From Candidatus Omnitrophota bacterium (GTDB taxonomy: Bacteria > Omnitrophota > Gorgyraeia > Zapsychrales > Fredricksoniimonadaceae), in the NCBI GenBank assembly GCA_044225175.1, contig JBGAJA010000001.1, positions 206,114 to 270,113 of the forward strand: DNA of 64,000 nucleotides. Direction: 5' to 3'. The notes beneath the pieces are model-generated. The model saw nothing but the letters and a program-made list of their open reading frames with translations. It did not search any database and was not told the origin of the DNA. A program made the translations under genes and the position numbers. How positions within the stretch are numbered: position 1 is the stretch's first letter; every line of letters begins with the position of its first letter. This document shows positions 38,446 through 64,000 of the stretch, one piece after another.

Positions 38446-39989
<1,544 letters not shown>

Positions 39990-40180
39990 TATTCTATTAC
40001 AGGATAGAAACGAAAATTTCATCGTCAACGAAATGTTTAAGCATAATAAGTAAATCAAGATCTTCTCTTTGAAGTTCTTGGCTTTCAAAAATTTTAGAAC
40101 TGCTCGTTGAAACAATGAGCGATCATTGTTTCAACGGGTTTGTTTTCCAAGTGGTCAATCCACTGGCTAAGCCGTATAAC

Positions 40181-40254
40181 GGGCCCGTAGCTCAGATGGT
40201 TAGAGCGCGTCCCTGATAAGGACGAGGTCAGTGGTTCGATCCCCCTCGGGCCCA
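40181..40254 (+). tRNA. tRNA-Ile (anticodon GAU)
   Basis: Cloverleaf GGGCCCGTAGCTCAG...CTGATAA... in the 16S–23S spacer. CCA is not encoded. One U·C mismatch in the T-stem. Confidence 0.85.
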
Positions 40255-40264
40255 TTTATTTCGA

Positions 40265-40341
40265 GGGGCCGTAGCTCAGTTTGGTAGAGCGCCTGCTTTG
40301 CAAGCAGGAAGTCAAGAGTTCGATCCTCTTCGGCTCCACCA
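40265..40341 (+). tRNA. tRNA-Ala (anticodon UGC)
   Basis: GGGGCCGTAGCTCAG...TTTGCAA... with the G3:U70 identity pair. CCA is encoded. Confidence 0.9.
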
Positions 40342-40472
40342 TTTTTTATACGGACTAAATGAATGAACAATAGATGTTAAGCATAGATTTGGATCTCGTT
40401 ACTGACGAGATCGACATGCTCTTTGACAATTATGAAATATAGGGTAATACAATTTCGAGTAGTTTTCGTGTT

Positions 40473-43431
<2,959 letters not shown>

Positions 43432-43488
43432 TATATTAAAATTTGCTTGGGTTGAATTATCCTATATTTCATAATTGTCGTTATCTAT

Positions 43489-43603
43489 TGCGGTAACATT
43501 ACTTGTGGGGCAACACCCGTTCCCTTTCCGAATACGGAAGTTAAGTCCACAGAGGTCGATGGTACTGTAGTCGCAAGGCTATGGGAGAGTAGAACGTTAC
43601 CGC
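43489..43603 (+). rRNA. rrf: 5S ribosomal RNA
   Basis: Terminal helix GCGGTAAC.../...GTTACCGC. Conserved CCGAATACGGAAGTTAAG and GAGAGTAGAACG. Confidence 0.9.
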
Positions 43604-43611
43604 TTTTCTTT

Positions 43612-47600: not shown

Positions 47601-47637
47601 AATTCTTTTGGAGCATCGACCAAACTTCTTGGTATTT

Positions 47638-47726
47638 GGAGAGGTGGCAGAGTGGTCGAATGCGGCGGTCTCGAAAACCGTTGTCCGGCGTAAGTCGGAT
47701 CCAGGGTTCAAATCCCTGCCTCTCCG
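47638..47726 (+). tRNA. tRNA-Ser (anticodon CGA)
   Basis: GGAGAGG acceptor stem, long variable arm, anticodon loop CTCGAAA, T-arm CAGGGTTCAAATCCCTG. CCA is not encoded. Confidence 0.85.
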
Positions 47727-47734
47727 TTGAAAGA

Positions 47735-48382
47735 CATATGGGACATATACGAAAAATTGGGGAAGTGTATTATATTGAATTTTTTGCTAGAGGATTGATG
47801 TATTCTCAGGTTGCAGGTCTAACTGAAGAAGGAGCCCGAGAGATGCTTGAAAAGATTGAGAGTAAGATCTCAGCAGGGGAAGCTTTAACGATTGTCAGGC
47901 AAATTAATTTAGATGTTTTTTTTGAGAGGTATCTAGAAGATGTTCATGATCAATTTTCTTCAAAAAGTATTGAGCGTTTTTCTTCGGCCTGGAGAAGTCT
48001 ATTGAATTTTCTAAACAAAAATTATCCGGAAGTTTATCAGTTGTCTCAAATCACGCCATTTTTAATTGAGTCGTATAAAGCCTATTTAATTCCATTAGAA
48101 ACGCCTAAGATTGTCAATTTCACTCTGCTTTTGTTAAGGGAAATTTTTGAGTACGGTATTAAGATTGGGTTTTTAAACGACAATCCATCCTTACATGTCA
48201 CATTGTTGAAAATGACACCATCACCTTTAAGAAAGGGTGCCCGTTCCCAGATAGCAAAAGAATTATTAACTAACGGAGTAATATTAGGAAAAATTTATCA
48301 AGTTCTAAAATTGAAAGATGTGGCTCAGGTCATGTTTTGGTCAAATTTTATTCCCCTGAAAAGGGAAGATGTGTATAATTAA
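47735..48382 (+). pseudogene. Truncated tyrosine-recombinase (phage-type integrase): N-terminal arm-binding and SAM-like core-binding domains only
   Basis: GEVYYIEFFARGLMYSQVAGLTEEGAREMLEKIESKISAGE is the AP2-like integrase N-terminal domain, and ...SQITPFLIESYKAYL the core-binding domain. The ORF ends at the start of the catalytic domain, so no RHRY catalytic residues are present. It sits 8 nt after the tRNA-Ser. Confidence 0.6.
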
Positions 48383-48403
48383 CGGCTTGTAACGCAATTT
48401 TGG

Positions 48404-48438
48404 GAGAGGTGGCAGAGTGGTCGAATGCGGCGGTCTTG
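48404..48438 (+). repeat. Direct repeat of the tRNA-Ser 5' half (att-like remnant)
   Basis: ggagaggtggcagagtggtcgaatgcggcggtct is identical to tRNA-Ser positions 1–35 and diverges at the anticodon loop. Confidence 0.7.
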
Positions 48439-48599
48439 AAATCCGAAAAAGCCCATTTTCTCAACCTCTTGAAATTGCTAAAAAGACCGCAGTTGTCGTC
48501 GACAAAATTGATTTTTAGGCCTTTGGATACTTTTGGATTTTTTAAGTATTTTTAATCTAAAACCGTCACGATTTCGACACCAAAAAAGGAGGTCAAAAA

Positions 48600-49010
48600 A
48601 TGACTTTCCAACCCATCAAAAGATTCATCACCCAATTTAATGACAAAACTTTTGCTACTCTATGGTTAGAGTCATTATTATTTTCTGTACTTTTTGGAAT
48701 AGGGTTTCATTCTTTGCTGGTATCTGTTTTGATGTTCGTAGGCTTAACATGGCTTATGAATAAGTGGAAAGGGACGCTCTATGCGATTCTCACGTTAAGT
48801 TTTCTGTGGGGATTTATTGTTTTCTGTATTTGTTATAGTGCTGGTGGATGGGTGTGGGGTCTTGGTTTAGGAGCGATAGTTTTTTATAAAGGAGTAAGAG
48901 TACATTTCCGTGAGTTAAAAGAGTCTTTGGATAATTTTAATTTTTTCACTTCTAATAATATTAGAGAGTGGCGACAAGATAATTATTGGGGTAGGCAGAA
49001 TTTGAATTAA
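48600..49010 (+). CDS. Small integral membrane protein (about 4 transmembrane helices)
   Basis: Strong RBS aaaaaggaggt. Hydrophobic segments. No domain recognised. Confidence 0.5.
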   Translation: MTFQPIKRFITQFNDKTFATLWLESLLFSVLFGIGFHSLLVSVLMFVGLTWLMNKWKGTLYAILTLSFLWGFIVFCICYSAGGWVWGLGLGAIVFYKGVRVHFRELKESLDNFNFFTSNNIREWRQDNYWGRQNLN

Positions 49011-49117
49011 TCATGGGACTCAATTTTTTATACCCTATGTGATTTAATAAATCACAGGAGGGTTCTTGTTTGAAGTAGAAAATAGTATTCAACACAATTG
49101 ACTTAAATGAGGATTAT

Positions 49118-50293
49118 ATGAGTGAGAATCAAGACATTGCTTTTAGTGCAGATTTAAGACCTGGTGGGAAAGAGGAATTGTTTGAGAATTTGAATGATTT
49201 TCAAATATGGCTAAATGTCGAACGAGAATTTTGGAACTGGATGGAAGTTCTGAGACAGAAGAATCCTAATGCTCACCACTACATTAATAGCTACTATCAG
49301 AGGTTAAATCAAATACAGGCTCATTTAGAAGCTACTCTTAATAATACAAATATTCCTCATCATCGGGGTCAATTAATTCAGGTTCTACAGAATTATTATC
49401 AAAAAAATCAATTAATTCACTCCTCACAACCCCGAGCAAAGTTTCTCAAAGAAATATTTGAAAAAGATCCAGCCCACGCTGTTTATACTTTGAAATTTTT
49501 TATTGATCGTAGATTTAATCAAGATACACCAGGAGAAATTGAAGGTTCTTTCTCTGCACTATTGTTTGAACATAATGTTAAGGATAGTAATAAAGGAGAA
49601 ACAAAAGCCCTGGAAGAACTTCGTGATTTGTGGCAAATACATCTAAATAATTCTAAGACAGATTTAACAAATATAACAAACGATTATGCGAACACTCTAA
49701 TAAAGCTTCAAGATCAAAAGAATGAAGAGAAGAAAAAATTTGAAGAATTATTAGGTAAAGCAGAAAAAGAACATGAGCAACGTATTGAAAAAGTGAAACA
49801 ACGCTTTAAAGAAATTGAAGACCTCTATGAGAAAAAATTAGCGCTTCATGCTTCAATTAAATATTGGGGAGAGAAAGCGAAAAGTCATTTTAGATGGTCG
49901 ATAGGGTTTACTATAGCTACTCTCGGGGGGTTTTATATTGCAGGGAATTGGTTATATAACATTATGAGATCAGTGATAGGAAATGCAACAATCAAAGACC
50001 TAGAAGTATGGAAAATAGGGTTGCTGTTAATTGCAGCGACAATAGGTGTTTGGATAACACGGGTTTTAATAAGATTGTTGTTAAGTAATGTTCATTTATG
50101 GAATGATGCCAATGAGCGAAGGACAATGATTCAAACATACTTGGCCTTACATAATGAAGGCAAAATGCCTGACCAATCACGAGAATTGATTCTTCAGGCT
50201 TTGTTTCGTCCTACAAGCACGGGTATAGTAAAGGATGATGCAGCTCCTCCTTTTATGGCTGAATGGTTAAAGAGAACAACAGGGGCCGACTAA
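49118..50293 (+). CDS. Hypothetical protein: N-terminal helical/coiled-coil domain, two transmembrane helices, short C-terminal tail
   Basis: 391 aa. Transmembrane helices near residues 255–275 and 290–315. Convergent with the TIR gene. Confidence 0.5.
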   Translation: MSENQDIAFSADLRPGGKEELFENLNDFQIWLNVEREFWNWMEVLRQKNPNAHHYINSYYQRLNQIQAHLEATLNNTNIPHHRGQLIQVLQNYYQKNQLIHSSQPRAKFLKEIFEKDPAHAVYTLKFFIDRRFNQDTPGEIEGSFSALLFEHNVKDSNKGETKALEELRDLWQIHLNNSKTDLTNITNDYANTLIKLQDQKNEEKKKFEELLGKAEKEHEQRIEKVKQRFKEIEDLYEKKLALHASIKYWGEKAKSHFRWSIGFTIATLGGFYIAGNWLYNIMRSVIGNATIKDLEVWKIGLLLIAATIGVWITRVLIRLLLSNVHLWNDANERRTMIQTYLALHNEGKMPDQSRELILQALFRPTSTGIVKDDAAPPFMAEWLKRTTGAD

Positions 50294-50342
50294 TGACTTT
50301 AAGGAATACAAGAATTTTATAGAAAATAAGCAATTTTGAGAA

Positions 50343-51695
50343 TTAAAAATGCTGCAATGAACTAAAAGGAGTGCTTCCTTCTCGAGGGGCATTTCCGTTT
50401 ATATAAACTTTCCACAAAACCACGTATTGAGCCCTATTCTGCCATTTATCAAAATTTAAAGAGTAAATGAGGTTGGATATTCCGTTTTCTCCAAATATTC
50501 GTATTTTCTTGCCTGGTAAAAGGAATTTATTAAATTCTTTTTTACCGCTATCTGGTAGAGCGGAATAGTCAAATATAAGATTTAAATAGCCAGGGTTATC
50601 CCGTGATTCACTCGACGTTAAATGAGGGTATTCCCATTTTTTCTTTTCCATATATTCACTAGGAAATTGAAGTTCAATAACAATATTTTTAAATTCTTCT
50701 TTTGTCTTATTTTCGATTTCAAGAAGGAAAGAATATTCGTGTAACTCTGAGGTTTGTTTCAAGGTTTTATAGGTTACTTCTACGTTGGCAGATGATGCGA
50801 TTGGAGAATATCCTTCTTTTAATTTGAGGAGTTCTGTTAATTCGTCTGGTTGCATAGTGTAGGTATTATTTGGAATTCCAAATTGTTCACATATTTTCTT
50901 ACAACTACTTAAAAGATCGGTTGAATCGAATAGTGTTATCCCTTGTGTAACTAAATTTAAAGGTGATCCAAATTCAGTTGGTGATATATTGGTATACATA
51001 GGATAGATTTTAAAACCTCGACCCCAAACGGCAGCGGATTCCCACCATACCCAAGAAGACTCCTGAGCCAATCGAGAGCAAATAGGAATTATAGCCTCTG
51101 CATTTTTTAAATTGGTTTCTAACATAATTTTTAGAGGGTCATCGCCAGGTTGTATACTACGTCTTGCGATAAATATCTCTGCCTTATCTTGAGTAAATTT
51201 TCTAAGTATTTTTTTTATGAAATCAGCTAAAGCGAGTTCTTCACTGGCATAACTGATAAAGATTATAGGGAGTTGTTGAATGGGGCACCTCTCTTTTATA
51301 TATCTAATTTTTTCTTCTGCAATTTCTTTTGTTTGTGAGGTTACACGTATTAGGCCCTCTTTCTTAAAGGGTGTATAAATGAAGGTGCATCTTGGGCTAT
51401 TATTCGTTGTTCCACTTATGCAAATATCATAAGTTAATTCTTGTTTGTATGCTTGAATAAGTTCAGCCAGGCTACTTACGGTGTGTTTAATGCCATCTGC
51501 GCTGTGCCAATAAGCAGTGATCCCACCAATAACATGTGGGTAACCAGGGAAGCCTTGAAACTCTTTACCCCAAGTTTGATCAAAAATTTCAAATAGTTGA
51601 TCTGAGGTTAGAATTTCGGGGGAAAATCCAATATAAGATAAGGTTACGCTGCTTTTCATTTTTGATAATATACTGCGCAAGACTTCAAAGGTCAA
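50343..51695 (-). CDS. TIR-domain protein with unknown N- and C-terminal domains (candidate defence or NADase effector)
   Basis: The central PIIFISYASEELALADF...AIIPICSRLAQESSWVWWESAAVW matches the TIR βA (FISY) and SxW...E motifs. The tracked start is TTG; an alternative ATG lies at 51659. Confidence 0.6.
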   Translation of the reverse strand: MTFEVLRSILSKMKSSVTLSYIGFSPEILTSDQLFEIFDQTWGKEFQGFPGYPHVIGGITAYWHSADGIKHTVSSLAELIQAYKQELTYDICISGTTNNSPRCTFIYTPFKKEGLIRVTSQTKEIAEEKIRYIKERCPIQQLPIIFISYASEELALADFIKKILRKFTQDKAEIFIARRSIQPGDDPLKIMLETNLKNAEAIIPICSRLAQESSWVWWESAAVWGRGFKIYPMYTNISPTEFGSPLNLVTQGITLFDSTDLLSSCKKICEQFGIPNNTYTMQPDELTELLKLKEGYSPIASSANVEVTYKTLKQTSELHEYSFLLEIENKTKEEFKNIVIELQFPSEYMEKKKWEYPHLTSSESRDNPGYLNLIFDYSALPDSGKKEFNKFLLPGKKIRIFGENGISNLIYSLNFDKWQNRAQYVVLWKVYINGNAPREGSTPFSSLQHF

Positions 51696-51795
51696 TGTAC
51701 CATTAGTAAACGAAGCGAACTTTATTTTTTACTACAAACAAACTACAAAAAGAACTACATCCGTGTAGTTGTTTTGTAGTAAATGTCTTTCCTAA

Positions 51796-51916
51796 CTCTC
51801 CCATTTGCAAGGGGTTTTTGGGGAAAAGCACCCAAAACTGTTCCCGACCCCACTCCCTCAACCATAGGTTAAGCGGAGGGACTGGGGTCGGGAACTACCA
51901 ATTGCAAATGGGAGAG
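51796..51916. repeat. Nested inverted-repeat structured element (perfect 15-bp outer inverted repeat plus 20-bp inner hairpin)
   Basis: Outer ctctcccatttgcaa / ttgcaaatgggagag. Inner gttcccgaccccactccctc–loop–gagggactggggtcgggaac. An additional ttttggg/cccaaaa hairpin lies between. Confidence 0.6.
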
Positions 51917-51987
51917 AGTAGAAGGGTGAGAAGATGTTGTATACTTGAGAAGGTGGTTAAGGAAGAATTTAAAAGGGAGGAATTATT

Positions 51988-52509
51988 ATGGAAACAGTAG
52001 GATTTTTTAACGGTGTATTAGGTGATGTATTTAAAACAGTAAGGCAAAGAATAGGAATTAAAGCTGATATTGATTTAGAAAAGATGAGGTTGATTGCAGA
52101 TAAAAAAGAAACACGTATTAAGGAATTAAAAGAGGCTCATAATATTTTGTTTGATCTGTCTAAGGAGTTCTCTCAGGACACTACTTATATCTTTTTTTCA
52201 TCAAAAATGAGCAGAGACCAATACAATAATCGATACCTAGATAAATGGACTGATCTCAATCGATTTATGGCCATAATAGCTACATACTTTCCCCAACTAA
52301 ATGATTTGGCGGAAAAGCTGGCTGGGAAGATAAATATTTATTGGGGTCAACAGCAGAATTTGTTATACCAAAAAGAAAAAGGTAGCGATCAGGTGGTTTG
52401 TATGGAAGTATTAAATAATGTTACTCAAGCAACGTTCAATATTGAAGAAACCATAAATTCTCTTAAGGTAGGTCTCAATAAAATATTAAATGAATTGAAA
52501 GAGGATTAG
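51988..52509 (+). CDS. Hypothetical protein
   Basis: 173 aa. RBS aaaagggagg. No domain recognised. Confidence 0.45.
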   Translation: METVGFFNGVLGDVFKTVRQRIGIKADIDLEKMRLIADKKETRIKELKEAHNILFDLSKEFSQDTTYIFFSSKMSRDQYNNRYLDKWTDLNRFMAIIATYFPQLNDLAEKLAGKINIYWGQQQNLLYQKEKGSDQVVCMEVLNNVTQATFNIEETINSLKVGLNKILNELKED

Positions 52510-52766
52510 TTTTAAATCTTTACCAACCGTTTTAATCAAATCCGCAGGTGGTTTGTCTCTGGTGCAGACAGGTTAGGCACATTCATTAGTTCAAGAGTTC
52601 GTATTCGTACGCTCCCGCATCCTTTCGATTGTTTTTTCGATTCTGTCATACGTATCAAGGACTACGCCCCACATAAAGCCTGTGAGGCTTGCAAGTGCTC
52701 CGCTCCGCTTCGCATCCTTGACACGTATGCCTTTAGATAATTAAAAAAATCGAAAGGAAACTCACT

Positions 52767-53285
52767 ATGCAAAACACACAAACAACACCAAAAATCTATG
52801 TAGCTTGTCTGGCAGCTTACAATAATGGTTTCTTACATGGTAAATGGATTGAAGCCAATCAGGAAGCAGAAGCTATCTATAAAGAGATACAAGAAATGTT
52901 AGCCAAAAGTCCTATAGCTGGTGCAGAAGAATGGGCTATCCATGATTATGAAGGCTTCATGGGTTTACAGTTATCAGAGTCTGAGGATATTGTTACTGTA
53001 GCAAGCATAGCGGTTATGTTAGAAAAGCATGGAGAAGCTTGGGCATTGTTTACGGAACATGATGGCATAGAATACGCCACAGAAGAGAGATTTGAAGAAG
53101 CGTATGAAGGTGAGTGGGATTCAGAAGAAGATTTTGCTGAAAATTTGGCTAGTGAGACTATGGAAATTCCGAAGCATTTAGAATTTTACATAGATTACGG
53201 GAAACTAGCCTATGATCTTTTCATTAACGATTATTTTTCTGCGGAAGGAAGTAGCCATAAGGTTCATGTATTTAGAAGGCTTTAA
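52767..53285 (+). CDS. ardA: Antirestriction protein ArdA
   Basis: KIYVACLAAYNNGFLHGKWIE...EEWAIHDYEGF and C-terminal LEFYIDYGKLAYDL are collinear with Tn916-type ArdA. Strongly acidic. Confidence 0.8.
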   Translation: MQNTQTTPKIYVACLAAYNNGFLHGKWIEANQEAEAIYKEIQEMLAKSPIAGAEEWAIHDYEGFMGLQLSESEDIVTVASIAVMLEKHGEAWALFTEHDGIEYATEERFEEAYEGEWDSEEDFAENLASETMEIPKHLEFYIDYGKLAYDLFINDYFSAEGSSHKVHVFRRL

Positions 53286-53386
53286 GCTATACGACCTAGA
53301 CATGTCGTAAAACTGTCTATTTTTTATTGAATTAGAAGTGGTAGTAAAAAATTTGACAGCAACATATAAAAGAGTATACTTAAAAC

Positions 53387-53767
53387 ATGAATAAGATTTT
53401 TACATCTTTTCTTGTTACATCCTTTCTTGCGACTTCTTTTCTTTGTTCTTGCGTAGGTAGTGCAGAGACTTTTTTAGATTCAGATGTTCATCATGATGAA
53501 TCAGACTGTCATTCCCATCAAGATAAAAGCGATCATTCATCTAAAAAAGATTGTGATTGCTGTGCGACTAAAATAATCAATGCCGATATTACTGCTAAAA
53601 ATGTTTTGGCAGTGCCTGGCAGTCTTTCTCAACAATCGTTTATTTTTAGTAGTACTTTTTTGAATAGAAATATTGATCTAAAGCAAAATCTTTCTTATGC
53701 CCATGGCCCTCCAGGGTCTGTAAGTCTAGTTCCTCTGTATATCCAATTCCACAGCCTTCGTATTTAA
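53387..53767 (+). CDS. Secreted or lipoprotein-like Cys/His/Asp-rich protein (putative metal-binding)
   Basis: Signal peptide ...FLCSC. HHDESDCHSHQDKSDHSSKKDCDCC cluster. Confidence 0.5.
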   Translation: MNKIFTSFLVTSFLATSFLCSCVGSAETFLDSDVHHDESDCHSHQDKSDHSSKKDCDCCATKIINADITAKNVLAVPGSLSQQSFIFSSTFLNRNIDLKQNLSYAHGPPGSVSLVPLYIQFHSLRI

Positions 53768-53840
53768 TCTTTTCTTCTTAAAATAGTGTCCTTTTCTATA
53801 AAGGGACGCAGTGTCTTTTTTTATTTTTAAGGAGGAAATT

Positions 53841-54221
53841 ATGAAATTATTATTTACTGTTATTTACATATTTTTGATTGGCACTGTTTCTGTTAATGCT
53901 TCTAGTAAAGTTAAAGAACACATGGCCATACATAAAATTCAATTTAATTCTAAATCTGATCGCATTAAATCATTTCATATGGAAGATGACGGCCAATTTA
54001 TTCATTTAAGCGGAATAATATCTAAAAGGCTGGGAGTGCCTTTTAGTAATTACTCCATTAAGACTGTTTGTGTTGATCAGAACGATAAAATTATTGATAA
54101 AGACAGCACACGTATAAGCGGAAGTTCAAGTTTTCTGCGTGGAAGAACAACGGCAAATTTTTATACAAGGATAAAGGATCATCAAGAAATAACAAAATGT
54201 GACATTAATGTTAGCGGTTAA
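53841..54221 (+). CDS. Secreted hypothetical protein
   Basis: RBS aaggagg. Signal peptide MKLLFTVIYIFLIGTVSVNA. Start trimmed from the ORF-tracker ORF. Confidence 0.45.
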   Translation: MKLLFTVIYIFLIGTVSVNASSKVKEHMAIHKIQFNSKSDRIKSFHMEDDGQFIHLSGIISKRLGVPFSNYSIKTVCVDQNDKIIDKDSTRISGSSSFLRGRTTANFYTRIKDHQEITKCDINVSG

Positions 54222-54235
54222 AAGGAGAAATCATT

Positions 54236-55630
54236 ATGCGAAATAAAGTTTTGATTGCCATCTGGTTATTAGCGCCAGGATTGGTATGGGCAGGAGACAA
54301 GGAGTCGGTATCTTCAGGGAATATGAAGAATTTATCTGAAGTGCAGCACATCGTTAAAGATAGAAGTGCCTACTCTATTAAAGAACAACCTTTAAGCGTG
54401 AAGGGGCCCCTAGATGAAGAGCAGGCCATTAGTTTATCTTTAAACAATAATTTAGTGCTTAAAGCATTATTTGAGAGATACGCAGTAGATAGGGCTGATA
54501 TCATAGGAGAAAGTTTATTAAAAAATCCTAAATTTTCTTATTCATCTAGAAAATCCAATGAGCCAGACACCAAAAGGGATACGGAATGGCAAATTAAAGT
54601 TGATGCTTTGGATTTATTATTGTGGCCTTTAAAGAAACAAGCACAACATCGTCAGATTAAATCCGCTGAATTTATGGTGGCTTCCAAGGTTTTGGATTTT
54701 ATCAAAGAGGTAAAAGTAAATTTTTATCATCTACAAGAAGCGCAGGCAGTAATGGATTCTTATGAAGATGATATGCAAGCCCAGCAGACCATCTTAGATT
54801 TAGCCAAAGGAATGTATGGAGCAGGAAACAGCAATATTCTTCAATGGCAAAAAGCACAGGTCGTATTTCATGAATCAAAATTAGGCTACTTAGATGCGAA
54901 ACGTGATTTAGCTATAGCTAGAGAAAATTTAAACTTGCTCTTAGGTTTACCTAAGGGGGAAGATGATTGGAAAATAAATAGCCAATTTAAAGATATTGCT
55001 TTTAGTGAACCTGAATTAACAAAACTTAATCAGATGGCACAAGAGAACCGTCTGGAAATTATTATTGCTAAAGCCCAGATTGGTATTTTAAGCAATAAGC
55101 TGACCATGGCTCGGGCTGGACTTTTGCCGTCATTCGAAGTCGGTTATGATCAAGAACGTGAAGCTAGTGGCAATAAACTCAAAGGCATGGTGTTGGAAAC
55201 GGACGTACCAATTTTTAATTTTAATCAAGCAGGAATGTTACGGTATGAATCACTTTTAAGCGAATCAAAGATTAACGTACCAGCAGTAGAAGCCTTGGTA
55301 ACTAAAGAAGTTAATGTGGCTTATCAGGAGTTAATTACAGCAAGGGCTAAAGTTGAAAATCTTCAAGAAGTCTTACCGCTCTATCAGCAAATGACTAGAG
55401 AGACGCTGTATCATTACAATTTTATGTTAAAAGATGTTTTTTCTGTGTTAGAAGCCAAAAGTGTACAGTTAAAAGCAAAGTCAGAATTTGCTAAAGCTAT
55501 GAGTGAATATTGGCAGGCACGGACTGAATTAGAACATGCGGTGGGGCATACTTTGTCATATACACCCTTAGTTCAAAAAACAGTTGAAGAACAAAAGACT
55601 AACGAAGCTGAACATCATCATGGAGGCTAA
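54236..55630 (+). CDS. Outer-membrane efflux protein (TolC/CusC family) with His-rich C-terminus
   Basis: Signal peptide. Two-repeat OEP-like helical/β pattern. Ends ...EAEHHHGG. Confidence 0.65.
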   Translation: MRNKVLIAIWLLAPGLVWAGDKESVSSGNMKNLSEVQHIVKDRSAYSIKEQPLSVKGPLDEEQAISLSLNNNLVLKALFERYAVDRADIIGESLLKNPKFSYSSRKSNEPDTKRDTEWQIKVDALDLLLWPLKKQAQHRQIKSAEFMVASKVLDFIKEVKVNFYHLQEAQAVMDSYEDDMQAQQTILDLAKGMYGAGNSNILQWQKAQVVFHESKLGYLDAKRDLAIARENLNLLLGLPKGEDDWKINSQFKDIAFSEPELTKLNQMAQENRLEIIIAKAQIGILSNKLTMARAGLLPSFEVGYDQEREASGNKLKGMVLETDVPIFNFNQAGMLRYESLLSESKINVPAVEALVTKEVNVAYQELITARAKVENLQEVLPLYQQMTRETLYHYNFMLKDVFSVLEAKSVQLKAKSEFAKAMSEYWQARTELEHAVGHTLSYTPLVQKTVEEQKTNEAEHHHGG

Positions 55631-55631
55631 T

Positions 55632-56834: not shown

Positions 56835-56859
56835 CAATCATCAAAGAAAGGAAATACGT

Positions 56860-57204
56860 ATGAAAAATAGAACCATAACAATATTAGTTGCAGGTAGTAT
56901 TTTGATGTTAGGAGGCTATTCTTTTGCTCAAGAAGCAGATCATGGCCAGGTTATCAGTGATAAGCAGGCTATGGAAGATATTGCTGCAAAGAAGGCTGTA
57001 GAAGTTGGCAATACAATTTGTCCTGTAAGTAAAGAAGAGATTCCTGCACCGGGTAAAGAAGGCCCAATGGGCGGGGCTATTAAATATGAATACAATGGTA
57101 AGATTTATAATCTATGCTGCAAGATGTGTGTAAAGGATTTTAAAAAAGATCCTGAGAAATATAGCAAAATTGCAGAAGATCAAGCTAAAACTGTCCAGAA
57201 ATAA
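56860..57204 (+). CDS. Periplasmic YHS/TRASH-domain metal-binding protein
   Basis: Signal peptide. ICPVSKEEI...YEYNGKIYNLCCKMCVKDFKKDPEKY matches the YHS pattern. Confidence 0.6.
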   Translation: MKNRTITILVAGSILMLGGYSFAQEADHGQVISDKQAMEDIAAKKAVEVGNTICPVSKEEIPAPGKEGPMGGAIKYEYNGKIYNLCCKMCVKDFKKDPEKYSKIAEDQAKTVQK

Positions 57205-57264
57205 TTGTTAGTTGATTAGCGGGTGGGAAAATTTGATTCCCACTCGCTATCTAAAGGAGAATTT

Positions 57265-57690
57265 ATGTTGGAACAACTGTTTCCCATACATCCCAAGCTT
57301 GTGCATTTTCCTATTGCTTTATTTATGACTGCATTTGCTTTGGATAGTTTAAGCTGGATTTTTCGTAAGGAACATTTACATAACACAGCAATAGTTATTT
57401 ATGTATTTGCGGCGTTATTCACTCCTCTAGTTGTCTGGACAGGGTTGTTTGAGCAACAGAGACTTCATTTGAATCATCCTGTCCTTAATCAACATAAATT
57501 ATACGCTTTTGGGACGATGTGGATTTCTTTAGCTTCATTACCTGTTTTATGGTTTTTGAAAAAGTTTTTTTCTAGAAATTTTAGAATAATATTTACATTG
57601 CTGCTTTTAAGTTTGGCAATACTGGTTACAGTTACAGGGCATTTTGGTGGACGTATGGTTTATGAATATGGAGCAGGAGTACAGAATTAA
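57265..57690 (+). CDS. Membrane protein (DUF2231-like, four transmembrane helices)
   Basis: Hydrophobic helices. Start trimmed to MLEQLF. Confidence 0.45.
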   Translation: MLEQLFPIHPKLVHFPIALFMTAFALDSLSWIFRKEHLHNTAIVIYVFAALFTPLVVWTGLFEQQRLHLNHPVLNQHKLYAFGTMWISLASLPVLWFLKKFFSRNFRIIFTLLLLSLAILVTVTGHFGGRMVYEYGAGVQN

Positions 57691-57710
57691 GATAGACTGA
57701 AATTATTCTC

Positions 57711-57742
57711 TTGACTCTCCACCATACTGGAAGGTGTATAGT
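57711..57742 (+). promoter_or_regulatory. MerR-type promoter: TTGACT, 20 nt spacer, TATAGT, with a GGAAGGT half-site in the spacer
   Basis: ttgactctccaccatactggaaggtgtatagt. The over-long spacer is typical of MerR/CueR-controlled promoters. It sits upstream of the MerR-family gene. Confidence 0.5.
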
Positions 57743-57768
57743 TTTATTAGATAACAAGGGAGATAAAA

Positions 57769-58167
57769 ATGTTTATCGGTGAACTCAGTAAAGAGACAGG
57801 TATTCCAGTTAAGACAATACGGTATTACGAAGAGTTTGGGCTTTTACATAAGCCGAAAAGATCAGTGTCTCAATACCGTATTTATAATCATAAAGACCTT
57901 GAAAAACTTTTATTTATCAAGAAGTCTAAAGATTTGGGGCTAACCTTAGCTGAAATAAAAAAAATCATCAAACGTAGCAGTAGTGGAGTTGAGGCAACGT
58001 GTTGTTTAGTCCATGAAGTTTTTGAAGAAAAAATAGCTGATTGTGAACAAAGAATCAAAGAATTAAAAGAAACTAAGAAGCGCTTAAGCGAACGGCTTCA
58101 CCATTGGATAACAACCAGTGAAGCTAAGAAATTAAAATTTACAATTTGTCCTCAAATTGATAAGTAA
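57769..58167 (+). CDS. MerR-family metal-responsive transcriptional regulator (CueR-like)
   Basis: N-terminal MFIGELSKETGIPVKTIRYYEEFGLL HTH, dimerisation coiled coil, C-terminal Cys-containing tail. Confidence 0.75.
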   Translation: MFIGELSKETGIPVKTIRYYEEFGLLHKPKRSVSQYRIYNHKDLEKLLFIKKSKDLGLTLAEIKKIIKRSSSGVEATCCLVHEVFEEKIADCEQRIKELKETKKRLSERLHHWITTSEAKKLKFTICPQIDK

Positions 58168-58313
58168 GATGGTTCAAATGAGGCTAACAGTATTTAAAAT
58201 TAAGTAGTTTTACTTAGATTTGCGAGTATGTTTCCGTACAGTATTTTTTTGTCTGTAGTGTTATTTTAGTTAAATAAAAATTTAAGGGTAATCTTTTATA
58301 AGGAGGTGGTTTT

Positions 58314-58964
58314 ATGCATGGAGATGAATTAGGGAGTTATGCCTATGGTATGTGGCCTGTGGTAATTTTTAACATACTTATTTTTTCTTTTTTTATCATT
58401 AGTTTTGTTAAGCCTCAAGGCAAAGTCGAATGGGCTTCTATGGGTGCTTTCATAGGATTTATCGTCGCTTTATTTACAGAAATGTACGGCTTTCCGTTGA
58501 CGATTTATCTCTTGTCAACCTGGATGGGGAAATCATATCCAGTTTTAAATCCATTTTCTCATAATCATGGTCATTTATGGCTGGTTTTGTTGGGGTTGGC
58601 TGATTCTGCATGGGCGATGACTCTTCTACATATAGTGAGCAATGGCATGATTCTTATCGGTTTTTATATAATTCAGAAGGGCTGGGTGCTTATCCATGCC
58701 GCAGCCGGCAAACGTTTGGTAACAGAAGGTATTTATGCTCATATACGACATCCTCAATATAGTGGGATGTTTTTGATAACCTTAGGTTTTCTTTTGCAAT
58801 GGCCTTCGATATTAAGTCTGGTGATGTGGCCTATTTTGATGTTCGCCTATTATCGTCTGGCTATGAAGGAAGAAAAAGACGTTCAGAAAATATTCGGGAA
58901 ACAATATGAGGAATACAGGAAGACAGTTCCTGCATTTATTCCTAAATGGGGAGGTACAAAATGA
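58314..58964 (+). CDS. Isoprenylcysteine carboxyl methyltransferase (ICMT/PEMT)-family membrane methyltransferase
   Basis: LVTEGIYAHIRHPQYSGMFL... is the family signature. Confidence 0.65.
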   Translation: MHGDELGSYAYGMWPVVIFNILIFSFFIISFVKPQGKVEWASMGAFIGFIVALFTEMYGFPLTIYLLSTWMGKSYPVLNPFSHNHGHLWLVLLGLADSAWAMTLLHIVSNGMILIGFYIIQKGWVLIHAAAGKRLVTEGIYAHIRHPQYSGMFLITLGFLLQWPSILSLVMWPILMFAYYRLAMKEEKDVQKIFGKQYEEYRKTVPAFIPKWGGTK

Positions 58965-59113
58965 CAAATACAATGTTTATTCTTATTGTGTTTATAGTTC
59001 TAATTGCTTTCATGATGATGAGAAAAGGCGGTGGAGGTTGTTGCGGTGGTCATCATGATGAAAAATCTGAAACAGATAAAAAAGAGGATGATAGGAAGCA
59101 CGGGTGTCATTAA
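58961..59113 (+). CDS. Small membrane peptide (50 aa) with GGGGCCGGHH and C-terminal HGCH motifs
   Basis: Not in the ORF track (under 60 aa). ATG overlaps the upstream stop (ATGA). One transmembrane helix then the Cys/His tail. Confidence 0.5.
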   Translation: MTNTMFILIVFIVLIAFMMMRKGGGGCCGGHHDEKSETDKKEDDRKHGCH

Positions 59114-59157
59114 CGGGAATTATCTAAAGATTGTAAAACTTGGAAAGGAGGATTGAA

Positions 59158-59409
59158 ATGAAAAATCATAATCATGGTTTATGGATGATGCTCTGTTGCA
59201 TTTTGCCTTTATTGGCAATTTTTCTGTTGCCGGGCTTTGGAGCTAGGGGTAATTCTTCAATTCTATTCTTTGTCATTATGATGTTTGCTTGTCATTTTAT
59301 GATGATGGGTGGTCATCAGCATGGTGAAGAGAATACTGACAATAAGACAGAGAATGAAGAAGATAAAAATAAAGAACACAAGGAAGGGGGTCATCATGGG
59401 TGTCATTAA
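59158..59409 (+). CDS. Small membrane protein with CC and C-terminal GGHHGCH motif, paralogous tail to the 58961 peptide
   Basis: RBS aaaggagg. MKNHNHGLWMMLCCILPLL... ending ...GGHHGCH. Confidence 0.55.
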   Translation: MKNHNHGLWMMLCCILPLLAIFLLPGFGARGNSSILFFVIMMFACHFMMMGGHQHGEENTDNKTENEEDKNKEHKEGGHHGCH

Positions 59410-59686
59410 TATTAAAAGATTCGGACTAGCGGTTGGTTTAACTCTGGTTTTTTTACGTCTGGGGTGCATCATTGTGTTTTTAATGACAACTAGGGAACAG
59501 GCAGTAGTTTTTTTTAATACTCTTTTGCATGGGATCGATGTTAGTTCGATATTAAAGACTGAAATGTCTGTCTTAGAGATGGTATTTGGACTGATTCAGA
59601 TATTTATTTTAGGGTGGTTAACAGGAGCAACAATAGCTAGTATTTATAACTTTAGTTTTAATAAAAAGAAAGGGTGTTGCATATGA
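59396..59686 (+). CDS. Small membrane protein ending in KKKGCCI
   Basis: ATG at 59396 preceded by ggaaggggg. Three hydrophobic segments. I rejected the ORF tracker's N-terminal extension at 59309, which overlaps the upstream gene. Confidence 0.4.
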   Translation: MGVINIKRFGLAVGLTLVFLRLGCIIVFLMTTREQAVVFFNTLLHGIDVSSILKTEMSVLEMVFGLIQIFILGWLTGATIASIYNFSFNKKKGCCI

Positions 59687-59820
59687 AAAACAATATTATA
59701 GGTATCATAGTATTTGCTATTTTAATAGTCTCAGGATTAGCCTTTGCTCATACGATGGGAATGGGTGGCGGTTGTTGCGGTGGTGCTCATCATACCTGTA
59801 GTCTGCATCACGCTCAGTAA
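59683..59820 (+). CDS. Small membrane peptide (45 aa) with MGMGGGCCGGAHH motif
   Basis: Not in the ORF track. One transmembrane helix plus a GGGCCGG.HH tail like the 58961 peptide. Confidence 0.5.
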   Translation: MKNNIIGIIVFAILIVSGLAFAHTMGMGGGCCGGAHHTCSLHHAQ

Positions 59821-59886
59821 TAAGAAAATGATAATGTATAATAGACAACAAATGAAGCTGTTGTTAACTAGAGAAAGGTAAAGTTT

Positions 59887-60309
59887 ATGAAAAACAGTAT
59901 CGCAGTATTCACAGCAATTGTAGTTTTAACCGTTTCAGGATTGGCCTTAGCCCAAATGAATGATAAGGGCAAAGAAATGATGGGGGACAAAACAGGAATG
60001 ATGGAGGGTAAAGGCGGCATGATGGGAATGATGGGTGGTAAAGGGATGATGGGTATGATGGGAATGTGTCAGTCCATGATGAACAAACCGTCTGTGGTTG
60101 CGGTTGGTGATGGAGTGGTTGTTTTATCAGGTAAAAAACTCTATAAATATGATGCCAATCTCAATTTAATTAAAGAAGCTGATGTTAAGGTGGAAGAGAT
60201 GGGAATGATGGGTGGGGATATGATGGGCAAAGGTAAGATGGATGCTGATGATAAAGAATCAGCAGAAGAGGCGGCTAAACATGCATCACATCATCCAGAA
60301 CAAAAATAG
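59887..60309 (+). CDS. Periplasmic methionine-rich copper-binding protein
   Basis: Signal peptide, then repeated [10 protein letters not shown] motifs and a His-rich C-terminus. Confidence 0.7.
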
Positions 60310-60326
60310 TCAAAGAGGGCTTATTT

Positions 60327-62600
60327 ATGGTTAAGGACCCCGTATGTGGAATGATGGTTGATCCATCAAAAGCGATCCATGCCTCTGTTGGGGGCATGGA
60401 TCACTATTTCTGTAGTACACACTGTAAAGAGAAGTTTCTAAGCAAGATTCAAGTGCCTGTGCCTGAAGCTAAATTTAATGGGAAAGCCATTTACACTTGT
60501 CCCATGCACCCTGAAATTAAGCAAGATCATCCAGGCGATTGTCCAAAATGCGGTATGCATTTGGAGCCACTCAACCCCACAGGTGGAGGAAATGAAGATC
60601 AAAAAGAGATTCATTCATTATCTCAAAAGTTTTGGATTGGCCTTACACTAACAATACCTTTGGTATTGTTAGTGTTGGGGGATATGATTCCAGCTGTCAA
60701 TCTTCAAGCATTCCTGCCTCAACATTTATTACCATTTTTACAATTAGCTTTAGCTACTCCTGTAGTTTTATGGACAGGGTGGATGTTTTTTGTTAAAGGC
60801 TGGCAATCTGTAATTAATAAAAGTCTTAATATGTTTACACTGATTGCTATTGGTGTTGGTGCAGCTTATGGGTACAGTACCATCGCAACTTTGTTTCCTC
60901 AAATTTTTCCTGAATCGCTTAAAAAAATGGGCAAGGTTGATCTCTATTTTGAAGCAGCAGCCGTCATCACAGTTTTAATTATTTTAGGACAATTATTAGA
61001 AGCTAAGGCTCGTAGTCAAACAGGTCAAGCTATCAAAGCACTTTTGGGGTTAGCTGCTAAGAATGCTCATCGCATTCAAAATGGAGTTGAGCAAGAAGTA
61101 GCTATTGATTCTGTTCAAAAAGGAGATTTGCTTAGAGTCCGTCCTGGAGAAAAAGTTCCTTTAGATGGTGTTATTACTGAAGGTCATAGTAGTATTGATG
61201 AATCGATGATTTCAGGTGAGCCAATTCCAGTTGAGAAGAATATTGGTGATCGAGTGATTGGTGCAACTGTTAACCAAACTGGCAGTTTTGTCATGAAGAC
61301 AGAAAGGGTGGGGGCAGAAACATTGCTGTCTCAAATTGTTCACATGGTTGCTGATGCTCAACGCAGTCGTGCTCCTATTCAAAAACTTGCTGACACTATA
61401 TCTGGTTATTTTGTTCCTGTTGTTATTTTGATTTCCGCTTTAACTTTTATTATTTGGTTGAATTGGGGGGTAGAGCCAAAGTTAGCATATGCGATTGTTA
61501 ATGCTATCGCAGTATTGATTATTGCTTGCCCGTGTGCTCTTGGCTTAGCTACACCTATGTCTATTATGGTTGGTGTTGGTCGTGGCGCACAAGCAGGAAT
61601 TTTAATTAAGAATGCTGAGGCTATTGAAAAATCTGAGAGAATTACCCATGTTCTAACCGATAAAACAGGAACACTGACCGAAGGTAAACCAAGGGTTACA
61701 ACTTGTGTCCCGAGTCGGGGCATAGATGAACAGCAACTTATAGGCATGGCTGCATCTATAGAACAAAGTAGCGAACATCCGTTAGCTCGTGCTGTGATTG
61801 ATTATGCAAAAGAAAGAAAAGTCAATTTGCAAGCTGTGCAGGATTTTGAATCGATTACAGGTGGTGGTATTAAGGGCAAGATCAATGGACAAGTGATTAT
61901 TTTGGGAAAGCAAAAATTTATTGAAGATCAAAAGATTACAATACCTGATGATTTAAAAAATAAAGCTGAACAATTACAAGAGAAGGCGCAGACTGTGGTT
62001 TGGTTAGCTGCTGATCAAAAAGTGATGGGAATGCTTGGAATTTCTGATCCTATTAAAAAATCAACTCCAGAGGCAATCGAAGCTCTTCATAAAATGGGGA
62101 TTAAGGTTGTGATGTTAACAGGAGATAATCAAAAGACAGCGGAAGTTATTGCTAAGGAACTTAAAATTGATGATGTTCGAGGGCAGTTAGAGCCAAAGAG
62201 TAAACAAGAGATAGTTAAAGAATTCAAATCCAAAGGTGCTGTAGTCATGATGGCAGGAGATGGTATTAATGATGCTCCAGCTTTGGCGCAAGCAGAGGTT
62301 GGTGTTGCGATGGGGACAGGAACAGATGTTGCTATTGAAAGTGCAGGAGTAACCTTGGTTAAAGGCGATCTTAACGGTATTGTTAAAACTTTACGATTAA
62401 GTAGAGCTGTTATGAAAAATATTCGTCAGAACTTATTTTTTGCATTTATTTATAATGTGTTGGGGATTCCTGTAGCCGCAGGTATTTTGTATCCTATTTT
62501 TGGCATTCTTTTAAGTCCCATTATCGCTGGCGCTGCGATGAGTTTCGGTTCAGTATCTGTTATTGGTAATGCTTTAAGGTTAAAGCGGTTGAGTTTTTGA
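60327..62600 (+). CDS. copA: Copper-translocating P1B-type ATPase with N-terminal TRASH/YHS and CPxH-type metal-binding domains
   Basis: DPVCGMMVD...YFCSTHC (TRASH). [26 protein letters not shown]. Transmembrane CPC motif. [21 protein letters not shown]. Confidence 0.9.
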
Positions 62601-62871
62601 TCTCAAGATAGATATTTGTTAAAAATATAGTATTTGAAAAAATATCAAATACTTCTTGACATTTAATAAAATATTTGTTGACAAATATTTTTGATCTGGT
62701 AATATTGTTTTCAGCAATTAGGAATAGTTGATTGCTACCGATTTCCCCGATCGGTTTAAGTAGTAGAAATTCCCCGAAGTTTGTTTTTATAGTTTAATTC
62801 AATGCTCAATTTCTTTTACCCCAAATCAAAGAAGTTGAACTCACAAGGTGCATTTTTTGTAAAAAGGACGC

Positions 62872-63642
62872 TTGTTTATGCGTGCGATTCCGCAAAAAAT
62901 TCAAATCTTGAAGTTCATAGGGGAACAGGGAATTGTTACTCTCTCTGATGTATCCCGCCATTTATTTAGTGAAGATAAGCTTTCTTATGTACGGGTTACT
63001 ATGTATGAGCTAGGTATAGCTCACAAAAAATACCCAGATGTAGCTAATGGTGTTTGGTTTATTGATAATCCAAAACTTTATGAGCTATTGAGTCTTTATT
63101 TTCCTGATTTTCCGCAATTAGAAGTCAAACCCTTTACCCTACATAAAATCCCACATAGTTTAGAAATAAACCGTATCCGCAGTACATTTACTCAATCCCA
63201 TCTTATTACAATTGATGAATGGTGGTCAGAAAGGTTGATCTGGGCATTGCCTGTTTCCCATCGTGAAGATTTTTGTAGCGATAAAGTCCCTGATGCTATT
63301 TTTTGGCGTAGACGTAAGGATGGTAGCCGACAAAAATATTTTCTTGAATATGAACGCACTTTAAAGAGTAAAGAGCGTTACGAAGAGATTTTTCGCTCTT
63401 ATGCCAAGTGTAAAGATGTCAAAGACCGCAATGTCATCTACATTTGCCAGACTCTGCGTATTAAAGAAGAGCTTCAAGACATAGAAGAACGCTTAGTCAA
63501 AGCAGGTCGATTAGCTGATGTTGCTCTCTATTTTCAATTCATTACCCTCGAAGGCTTTTATAAAACACATTCAAACCACAATTTAAAGGAGGAAGTAAAC
63601 CATGAACAAACTCAAAAAGTATACGCAAACGTATCTGTTTAA
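62872..63642 (+). CDS. Hypothetical winged-helix-like protein (possible mobile-element replication, relaxation or regulatory protein)
   Basis: N-terminal ILKFIGEQGIVTLSDVSRHLF is wHTH-like. Preceded by an inverted-repeat-rich intergenic region. Confidence 0.35.
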   Translation: MFMRAIPQKIQILKFIGEQGIVTLSDVSRHLFSEDKLSYVRVTMYELGIAHKKYPDVANGVWFIDNPKLYELLSLYFPDFPQLEVKPFTLHKIPHSLEINRIRSTFTQSHLITIDEWWSERLIWALPVSHREDFCSDKVPDAIFWRRRKDGSRQKYFLEYERTLKSKERYEEIFRSYAKCKDVKDRNVIYICQTLRIKEELQDIEERLVKAGRLADVALYFQFITLEGFYKTHSNHNLKEEVNHEQTQKVYANVSV

Positions 63643-63898
63643 TTGTTTATTAATGACATTTTTGTTCTTTATTCTTTTTAATACACCTGCTTTTGCTGAT
63701 TTAACTAGCAGTATGGAAGACTTGCAAAGCAGGGTAAGGAGTATTTGCACACCTTTAGCAATAATCTTTCTTGTCATTGCAGGTATGCAAAAGGCAATGG
63801 GGAATAACCAGATTTTTGTTCTGGCTTTGGTTGGAACAATCATCATGTTTGGGGCCCCACAAATTGTTTCTTTTATTAGCGCTGCCTTTGGAGGGTAA
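63602..63898 (+). CDS. TrbC/VirB2-like conjugative type IV secretion pilin
   Basis: 98 aa. Signal peptide ...NTPAFA|DL, then two hydrophobic helices separated by a short polar loop. Confidence 0.5.
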   Translation: MNKLKKYTQTYLFNCLLMTFLFFILFNTPAFADLTSSMEDLQSRVRSICTPLAIIFLVIAGMQKAMGNNQIFVLALVGTIIMFGAPQIVSFISAAFGG

Positions 63899-63903
63899 GA
63901 CTC

Positions 63904-64000
63904 ATGCGCCTTTACATGGAAAAATGTTTAAGGAATTTACAAGATAGGATGATTGTCTTTGGATTTGAAGGCTGGGACATATTCATTGTCCTAGGAGCTG
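63904..64000 (+). CDS. Partial ORF at the window edge (possible VirB3/TrbD-like small membrane protein)
   Basis: MRLYMEKCLRNLQDRMIVFGFEGWDIFIVLGA..., truncated by the window end. Confidence 0.25.
   Translation, partial: MRLYMEKCLRNLQDRMIVFGFEGWDIFIVLGA

Follow-up and report, generated by a model that had tools for sequence, protein, structure and literature searches.

A very probable integrative conjugative element with a copper-resistance island, inserted in the anticodon loop of tRNA-Ser(UGA) in an Omnitrophota genome

Introduction

In the Islander catalogue of genomic islands, those that displace the 5' fragment of a tRNA gene and use a site centred on the anticodon make up 159 of 3919 tRNA islands (Hudson, Lau & Williams 2015; PMC4383910). 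Here we describe what is very probably an integrative conjugative element (ICE) of this class in a 64,000-nucleotide stretch of a Candidatus Omnitrophota genome (contig JBGAJA010000001.1, positions 206,114 to 270,113), the whole of which is referred to below as the window. We hold with high confidence that window positions 48442-64000 are the left 15.6 kb of a 26,984-bp ICE residing in the anticodon loop of tRNA-Ser(UGA). The element is structurally complete, and it belongs to a well-delimited family of a known kind of mobile element. The labels on its nearest relatives point to an Omnitrophota-like lineage inside the PVC group.

Two other described systems are relevant for comparison. The MOBC relaxases, such as CloDF13 MobC and pAD1 TraX, along with the Replic_Relax family (PF13814), are of the PD-(D/E)xK, restriction-endonuclease-like type (PMC12857230). 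As to the host phylum, Omnitrophota are presented, in the parts of the literature available to us, as uncultured, often ultra-small and possibly host-dependent, and their lateral gene transfer as mostly involving plasmids, phages and unusual Mu-like or integrase-bearing elements; no canonical ICE is described in those parts. Copper and heavy-metal resistance ICEs are well known, and in Proteobacteria they include the Tn4371-family ICEs and the copper homeostasis/silver resistance islands.

An earlier note, made from the letters of the window, had already called a probable ICE here, and this call is now borne out by a VirB4 ATPase, a type IV coupling protein (T4CP), a relaxase candidate, a full tyrosine integrase, an excisionase-like gene, a far att repeat and an empty site in a relative.

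Ends of the Element and the Empty Site

Transfer RNA genes were called with ARAGORN and Rfam, protein families with Pfam and NCBIfam, and defence systems with PADLOC. The element beyond the window was read from Logan contig SRR28480385_626519 (27,067 bp), which was taken as two loci, L030 and L029, and which runs 11.5 kb beyond the window end. L030 equals window positions 48407-63285 (14,879 nt) with 0 mismatches, L029 matches window positions 63516-64000 at 100% (it also matches locus L001), and the coordinates close exactly (48407 + 27,067 - 1 = 75473 = 63515 + 11958). Both the contig and the protein P0193, the 362-aa integrase (Int), were found by a homologue search with the integrase of sister locus L004, and the exact P0193 sequence is on the Logan contig. 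In addition, P0193, the relaxase-like protein of the window (P0001) and a chromosomal protein termed g214 (P0092) are recorded on one NCBI contig of 819,945 bp. The features that define the left and the right ends are as follows.

47637-47727, plus strand: tRNA-Ser(CGA) (ARAGORN, Rfam), chromosomal, not the element end
47738-48382, plus strand: g214, 214-aa protein, chromosomal, outside the element
48403-48441, plus strand: attL, displaced tRNA-Ser(UGA) 5' half, spanning tRNA position 1 through the anticodon loop CTTGAAA
48561-48584, plus strand: 24-nt motif AACCGTCACGATTTCGACACCAAA, left arm
L029 11871-11959: attR, intact tRNA-Ser(TGA) (ARAGORN; Rfam 63.2 bits)

The left end was placed through locus L023, whose seryl-tRNA synthetase (SerRS) is 85% identical to that of the window, and in which serS, tRNA-Ser(CGA), g214 and an intact tRNA-Ser(TGA) are followed by T2SSE, ftsH, folP and uvrB. 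Thus L023 presents the empty site, an intact tRNA-Ser(TGA) directly after g214. Window and L023 run colinear from 43.7 kb, past the end of g214 and a spacer of 18-19 nt, and into the tRNA as far as CTTGAAA, and they diverge at 48442; as colinearity breaks within the anticodon loop, the element must be inserted in tRNA-Ser(UGA). On the left, 46 nt (48400-48445) copy the tRNA-Ser 5' half, with the anticodon TGA, and neither ARAGORN nor Rfam calls a tRNA there. The far-end att repeat, for which the earlier note had advised looking, lies 11.4 kb beyond the window: attL and attR (L029 11872-11910) share the tRNA-Ser 5' half over 39 nt with 3 mismatches, and the final 15 nt, GCGGCGGTCTTGAAA, are identical. 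The attL half equals the 5' half of the genome's own tRNA-Ser(CGA) except for the anticodon, and the attR half differs at 3 positions, as would fit a crossover within the anticodon loop by which the element brings in a new 5' half. Judged by its sequence, attR is a complete tRNA-Ser(UGA) that owes its 5' half and its upstream arm to the element. The motif AACCGTCACGATTTCGACACCAAA has an identical copy 68 nt upstream of the attR tRNA (L029 11780-11803), and sister elements have it in the right arm at the same place (identical in L022, with 2 mismatches in L028); it is a putative arm-type integrase-binding site.

This organization resembles that of the Islander islands and ICEs in having a tyrosine integrase beside a regenerated tRNA, a displaced tRNA fragment at the other end and a crossover in the anticodon loop, and it obeys the rule that a 5' fragment lies upstream of the intact gene (PMC4383910). 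It differs in belonging to the minority, 5'-displacing class, in which the element must also supply the upstream region of the tRNA, and in a host phylum that is absent from the well-studied examples.

Contigs assembled from short reads of the same sample break inside the shared tRNA-Ser 5' half, at the start of L030 (window 48407), the end of L029 and the end of L032 (window ~47667); this half is common to tRNA-Ser(CGA), attL and attR, and as a result the ICE assembles as a contig of its own, of 27,067 bp. Elements that assemble separately at tRNA repeats could easily be lost by binning pipelines. Breaks placed exactly at these repeats are also what would be expected if a plasmid with a tRNA-Ser-like attP had been joined to the chromosome erroneously, via the shared tRNA sequence. 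We give such an artefact hardly any credence: both hybrid junctions, one of a native-type 5' half with the left arm and one of an element-type 5' half with a chromosomal-type 3' half, are present in the independent assembly, and the longest stretch over which attL and attR agree exactly, 15 nt, is too short for misjoining.

The Chromosomal Flank and g214

The DNA upstream of the element is core chromosome, with an rRNA operon including tRNA-Ile and tRNA-Ala (38446-43605), pseudopilin-like genes and serS (46323-47600). The earlier note had correctly placed a tRNA-Ser, now identified as tRNA-Ser(CGA) at 47637-47727, at the start of its region, but the switch to mobile DNA that it set at 47638 actually occurs at 48442, where the window departs from L023, and the gene that it took for an integrase remnant, g214, is of a conserved chromosomal family found at loci without the element. 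Copies of g214 include the following.

Window 47738-48382
L023 7868-8512
L026 10001-10645
L022 10001-10645
L009 8860-9507

The only profile match of g214 is to Phage_int_SAM_5, the profile of its family aligns to residues 38-191 of the ICE Int, and its predicted structure (pLDDT 90) has lambda Int as the top PDB match; in an alignment to full integrases, the catalytic R, HxxR and Y residues are absent from g214. Its family comprises at least 75 protein clusters, 45-65% identical, nearly all of 213-217 aa. Conserved and chromosomal, g214 has arm-binding and core-binding domains resembling those of lambda Int and no catalytic residues, and it looks like an integrase fragment that has been domesticated and is maintained by selection. 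The neighbourhood of serS, tRNA-Ser(CGA) and g214 is kept in L023 and L026, both without the element at the locus, and in other Omnitrophota-labelled genomes g214 is near serS and adjoins tRNA-Ser genes, with core genes on either side. In 6 of the 7 contexts examined g214 adjoins at least one tRNA-Ser gene or fragment, and those tRNA-Ser genes are the attB sites of this ICE family.

An element starting at the 3' end of tRNA-Ser(CGA), at 47728, with g214 as its decayed integrase, would explain why g214 directly follows a tRNA and shares homology with the N-terminal portion of the family's integrase, and in locus L009 a g214 homologue does follow a T4SS module. This reading is very unlikely. The length of g214 is conserved over its 75 or more clusters, in L023 and L026 it stands beside tRNA-Ser genes and is flanked left and right by core genes, the element's independent contig begins at 48407, the real integrase is at the opposite end, and the empty-site alignment refutes such a start. 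The conserved length, the missing catalytic residues, the chromosomal contexts and the gene order of L023 together indicate that g214 is not the decayed integrase of this element, and the element as we delimit it begins at about 48442, inside tRNA-Ser(UGA).

Locus L009 (8313-9601) holds a T4CP gene, an excisionase (Xis) gene, no integrase, some 290 bp, a tRNA-Ser(CGA) remnant of just the final 16 nt at the 3' end, and then the g214 homologue. Its junction geometry differs from that of the window element, being either of a 3'-end type or eroded. It had suggested an ICE-borne g214 with an attP between Xis and g214, an arrangement ruled out by the chromosomal contexts and the empty site.

Transfer and Recombination Module

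The window ends, as the earlier note had it, inside a transfer module, which is now seen to be an operon for a type IV secretion system (T4SS) that continues on L029; the VirB4 ATPase and the VirD4-type coupling protein, which that note had suggested seeking by extending the contig, are both encoded downstream, and a relaxase candidate is encoded within the window.

62640-62871, plus strand: non-coding region, candidate origin of transfer (oriT) and operon promoter (from inverted repeats, conservation and promoter scan)
62678-62705, plus strand: promoter-like TTGACA-16-TAATAT
62872-63642, plus strand: 256-aa winged helix-turn-helix (wHTH) and PD-(D/E)xK nuclease protein, probable MOBC/Replic_Relax-type relaxase
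63602-63898, plus strand: TrbC/VirB2 pilin (PF04956, 35.7 bits)
63904-64000, plus strand: start of the VirB3-VirB4 fusion ATPase (922 aa), the rest being past the window on L001 and L029
L029, next after VirB3-VirB4: glycine-zipper lipoprotein and a 248-aa protein
L029, then: VirB6/TrbL-like, TraE/VirB8-like, CagX/VirB9, TrbI/VirB10 and TraV-like lipoprotein
L029: coupling protein (T4CP), 599 aa, with TraG-D_C, T4SS-DNA_transf and TrwB_AAD_bind matches
L029: HTH_17 excisionase-like protein, followed by a 58-aa MerR-like HTH protein
L029 10001-11089: tyrosine integrase Int, 362 aa (PF00589 and Int_N)
L029, after Int and before attR: Gp49-like 107-aa protein and a 105-aa protein

The element thus possesses both the VirB4 and the coupling protein of an ICE, and Int keeps its catalytic motifs (GMR223, HDLRH311, LGH335 and RYAH345). 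The two small proteins after Int look like a toxin-antitoxin pair, judging from their sequences. The full order is attL, the AbiZ-like gene, TIR, ArdA, the copper island, the non-coding region, the wHTH-nuclease gene, pilin, VirB3/4 and the remaining T4SS genes, T4CP, the Xis-like gene, the MerR-like HTH gene, Int, the toxin-antitoxin-like pair and attR.

The T4SS is similar to the F type of proteobacterial plasmids, with its TraC-like VirB4, in that the best VirB4 matches are to TraC (TIGR02746; plasmid traC), that TraE-like and TraV-like proteins are present and that VirB11 is absent. It is different in that these VirB4 matches, among plasmids of cultured bacteria, reach only 22-23% identity (TIGR02746 133 bits versus a cut-off of 567) and in that it is a compact set of about 11 genes with a VirB3-VirB4 fusion; no TraF, TraH, TraN, TraU or TraW matches were found among the element open reading frames (ORFs), and by these marks it does not qualify for the F class of mating-pair formation systems (MPF-F).

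In locus L002 (535-1238; SRR28480381), a variant of the pilin-VirB3/4 region, 99.5% identical, has the start of VirB3/4 split into two short ORFs (117 and 118 aa); either a frameshift or faulty assembly, in a sibling sample, could account for this.

The gene for the 256-aa protein, seen in the earlier note as a wHTH protein, is indeed at 62872-63642, and its product is better described as a probable relaxase. It opens the T4SS operon in every relative, and its product combines an N-terminal HTH with a PD-(D/E)xK (restriction-endonuclease-like) catalytic domain, in which P140-D141 and E161 are invariant in the family and E159 and K165 nearly so. At E<0.1, 17 of the 41 homologues match PF13814 (best 2e-7), and some of the homologues are named 'replication-relaxation family protein' by NCBI. 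No other relaxase families were found on the element. The MOBC relaxases are alike in size (about 250 aa), in the HTH followed by a PD-(D/E)xK fold and in the location of the gene beside a conserved inverted-repeat region and T4SS genes; unlike them, the protein scores far under the curated cut-offs and has no match by tblastn in 72,556 plasmids, and the likeness is to the described architecture, not to a solved MOBC structure. The protein is, in our reading of its sequence, probably a divergent MOBC-like relaxase, which is not to be counted as a member of the family.

The intergenic DNA in front of this gene (62600-62872) is rich in inverted repeats, as the earlier note had observed, and is kept in relatives. 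Nucleotide similarity to the sister elements starts some 26-40 nt past the copA stop, and a non-coding stretch of about 230 nt is kept in at least six elements (L003, L004, L006, L011, L013 and L019). The stretch 62640-62871 holds a hairpin, ACCGATTTCCCCGATCGG, and an inverted repeat, TCAATTTCTTT/AAAGAAGTTGA, and these features suggest that it is likely both oriT and promoter. As matches in promoter and terminator scans were not enriched over shuffles, only two sites supported by their positions are used here, the one listed above and one at the start of the copper island.

Cargo Genes

Between attL and the oriT-like region, the element carries defence-like genes, an anti-restriction gene and a copper-resistance island, and the genes that the earlier note had named (TIR, ArdA, outer-membrane efflux protein, multicopper oxidase, YHS, MerR, Met-rich, CopA and, further on, the 256-aa protein and the pilin) are all where it had placed them.

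48600-49010, plus strand: 136-aa membrane protein, first element gene
49118-50293, plus strand: AbiZ-like/DUF6161 protein (PF19658, 90.3 bits versus a cut-off of 27; PADLOC AbiZ, E 7e-22)
50343-51695, minus strand: TIR-domain protein (TIR_2, 34.4 bits versus a cut-off of 28)
52767-53285, plus strand: ArdA anti-restriction protein (PF07275, 131.9 bits versus a cut-off of 27)
53353-62600, plus strand: copper-resistance island (Pfam, NCBIfam; gene calls on the identical contig L030)
53353-53380, plus strand: strong promoter-like site, 11 of 12 positions matched, at the start of the copper island
After this site and before the next gene, plus strand: two secreted His/Cys-rich proteins
54236-55630, plus strand: outer-membrane efflux protein (OEP)
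55584-56834, plus strand: multicopper oxidase
56860-57204, plus strand: YHS protein
57223-57690, plus strand: DUF2231
57769-58167, plus strand: MerR-family regulator
58314-58964, plus strand: PEMT/ICMT-like protein
58946-59820, plus strand: small Cys/His-rich ORFs and a DUF5676 ORF
59887-60309, plus strand: Met-rich protein
60327-62600, plus strand: CopA P1B ATPase (TIGR01511, 600.1 bits versus a cut-off of 397)

The 136-aa membrane protein has no family match in the profile searches, PADLOC included. The AbiZ-like protein is a candidate for abortive-infection defence, and the TIR-domain protein is a candidate defence effector. For the latter, only the generic TIR_2 profile passes; ThsB_TIR gives 17 bits versus 21.2, there is no PADLOC match and no ThsA neighbour, and thus it is not assigned to Thoeris.

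The centrepiece of the island is CopA, which has the CPC motif in its translation and N-terminal YHS and HMBD domains, the marks of a Cu(I)-exporting P1B-1 ATPase. The copper-homeostasis module that the earlier note had considered complete is present as an island, but its OEP has no RND or membrane fusion protein (MFP) partner, and the metal specificity of its MerR-family regulator is not assignable from sequence, as the CadR/PbrR, MerR, ZntR and CueR equivalog models score nearly equally, 81-89 bits, all below cut-off. Within the island, a signal-peptide-coding segment (59682-59755 and 59886-59959, 72% identity) and a GGGCCGGHH-coding segment (59030-59059 and 59764-59793, 87% identity) are each found twice, which, from the sequences, points to small secreted paralogues rich in Cys/His and in Met.

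Proteobacterial copper ICEs likewise carry a P1B ATPase, a multicopper oxidase, a MerR-type regulator and periplasmic metal-binding proteins as conjugative cargo. The differences are that CusAB or PcoBCD partners are not present here, that the backbone is another one, with the cargo between ArdA and oriT, and that in sister elements the same slot holds RND/CusB-like, DsbA-HMBD, NicO or other P-type ATPase modules.

Related Elements

Approximately 20 related loci, with the same operon order, were found in metagenome-assembled genomes (MAGs) labelled as Omnitrophota or 'Planctomycetales' and in metagenomes, and the relaxase-like protein has at least 90 clusters. The window element and its sisters have in common the right arm and the 24-nt motif, and three sisters close as Int and then an intact tRNA, at tRNA-Ala(CGC) and then core genes in L006, and at tRNA-Ser(CGA) in L004/L022 and in L028. 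The left ends of the elements of L006 and L004 are undefined, as no displaced 5' fragment of tRNA-Ala or of tRNA-Ser, respectively, was found within the DNA examined. Read together, the anatomy of the window element, its integration junctions, the empty site and the synteny of the family follow directly from these sequences.

The VirB4 proteins of the window element and of L003 are 96% identical, versus 85% for SerRS and 59% for g214 between the same two genomes, which is consistent with horizontal spread. Scans of genomes and metagenomes with VirB4 recovered relatives only, at most 96% identical, and a scan of IMG/VR with the alignment of the relaxase-like protein gave no match, suggesting that the element is not phage-like.

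The cargo slot, from attL to oriT, varies and is often related to metals. In L003 (31-8548), the region upstream of the oriT-like region encodes a CusB-like MFP, an AcrB-type RND pump, a DsbA-HMBD protein and NicO, and in L011 (5639-8079) the same slot holds a P-type ATPase of another type along with a YHS protein. In L004 (1-8705), two giant ORFs sit directly upstream of the relaxase-like gene; they are 52-59% identical to a 1601-aa ORF without Pfam domains at window positions 14691-19496. The DNA around this ORF (12.5-20 kb) is low in GC, at 0.33-0.36, and its tetranucleotide shift matches that of the ICE in size.

A Mobile Element or a Fixed Island

Several observations weigh against the reading of this locus as a mobile ICE. 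The compositional contrast with the chromosome is weak: the AT-richness reported in the earlier note is real (GC 36.6% in the element, 38.8% in the core) but mild, the core stretch 43.65-48.4 kb (36.1%) being equally AT-rich, and the composition comparison that it had proposed gives a tetranucleotide distance that is raised, but only moderately, with core stretches 43.65-48.4 kb and 12.5-20 kb similar; composition by itself would not have revealed the island. The Logan contig ends at the 3' end of the attR tRNA, with the chromosomal flank beyond lying outside it. The relaxase assignment rests on the fold and on profile matches below threshold, as the 256-aa protein matches NF041423 ('MobC family replication-relaxation protein') at E 1.5e-9 with 37.5 bits versus a cut-off of 200, and PF13814 with 13.3 bits versus 25.3. 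No VirB11, VirB1 or clear VirB5 was found among the element ORFs. Neither an excised circle, nor an attP junction, nor an empty attB of the same population was seen, no search for them having been made.

The lack of an excision product (none was searched for), the sub-threshold relaxase and a T4SS without VirB11 would also suit a fixed or defective island, integrated once and immobile, whose T4SS has been retained or has taken on another role, such as contact-dependent secretion by an Omnitrophota cell that depends on a host, and many secretion and pilus loci are reported for Omnitrophota in the parts of the literature available. Such an island we consider quite unlikely, given that every ORF is intact and Int retains its catalytic motifs, that the att repeats are nearly undamaged, that one backbone is found at three different tRNA genes with differing cargo, that VirB4 is more conserved than SerRS between two genomes, and that T4CP, Xis, Int and the oriT-like region are all linked.

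For the ICE, by far the more probable reading, we infer the following course of excision, nicking and transfer, and the following cargo phenotypes. Int and Xis would recombine attL with attR at the anticodon loop CTTGAAA, flanked by half-sites in the anticodon stem, producing a circle and restoring the native tRNA, with the 24-nt motif, one per arm, possibly acting as the arm-type binding site. The wHTH/PD-(D/E)xK protein would then nick oriT within 62640-62871, and the coupling protein would deliver the DNA to the VirB11-less T4SS. In the recipient, ArdA may shield the incoming DNA from type I restriction, and Int would insert the circle into tRNA-Ser(UGA), or into tRNA-Ser(CGA) in the case of sister elements; the toxin-antitoxin-like pair may stabilise the element. 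The host might benefit from Cu(I) export by CopA, from periplasmic oxidation of Cu(I) by the multicopper oxidase and from metal-binding periplasmic proteins, under a MerR-type regulator, and further from the two candidate phage-defence proteins.

One more idea, which we regard as speculative and unlikely in its combined form, concerns both the tRNA and g214. By replacing the 5' half and the entire upstream region of tRNA-Ser(UGA), the element would control the expression of this tRNA. Under standard wobble rules, tRNA-Ser(UGA) is required for reading UCA, and such a takeover would thus act as a built-in addiction. As to g214, which lies between the two tRNA-Ser genes targeted by the ICE family, it could be a domesticated host factor that binds these att sites and, in the role of decoy or directionality factor, controls integration or excision.

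Overall, while the type of the element is textbook and its copper genes are ordinary, elements of this kind are hardly described in the phylum, judging from the parts of its literature available. The present example is fully delimited, with both att sites, the integrase, the excisionase, the T4SS, the coupling protein and the candidate relaxase and oriT mapped, and it belongs to a widespread family that repeatedly carries metal-resistance cargo in one slot. It presents a concrete vehicle for gene flow in Omnitrophota, and can serve as a template when such islands are annotated in MAGs.

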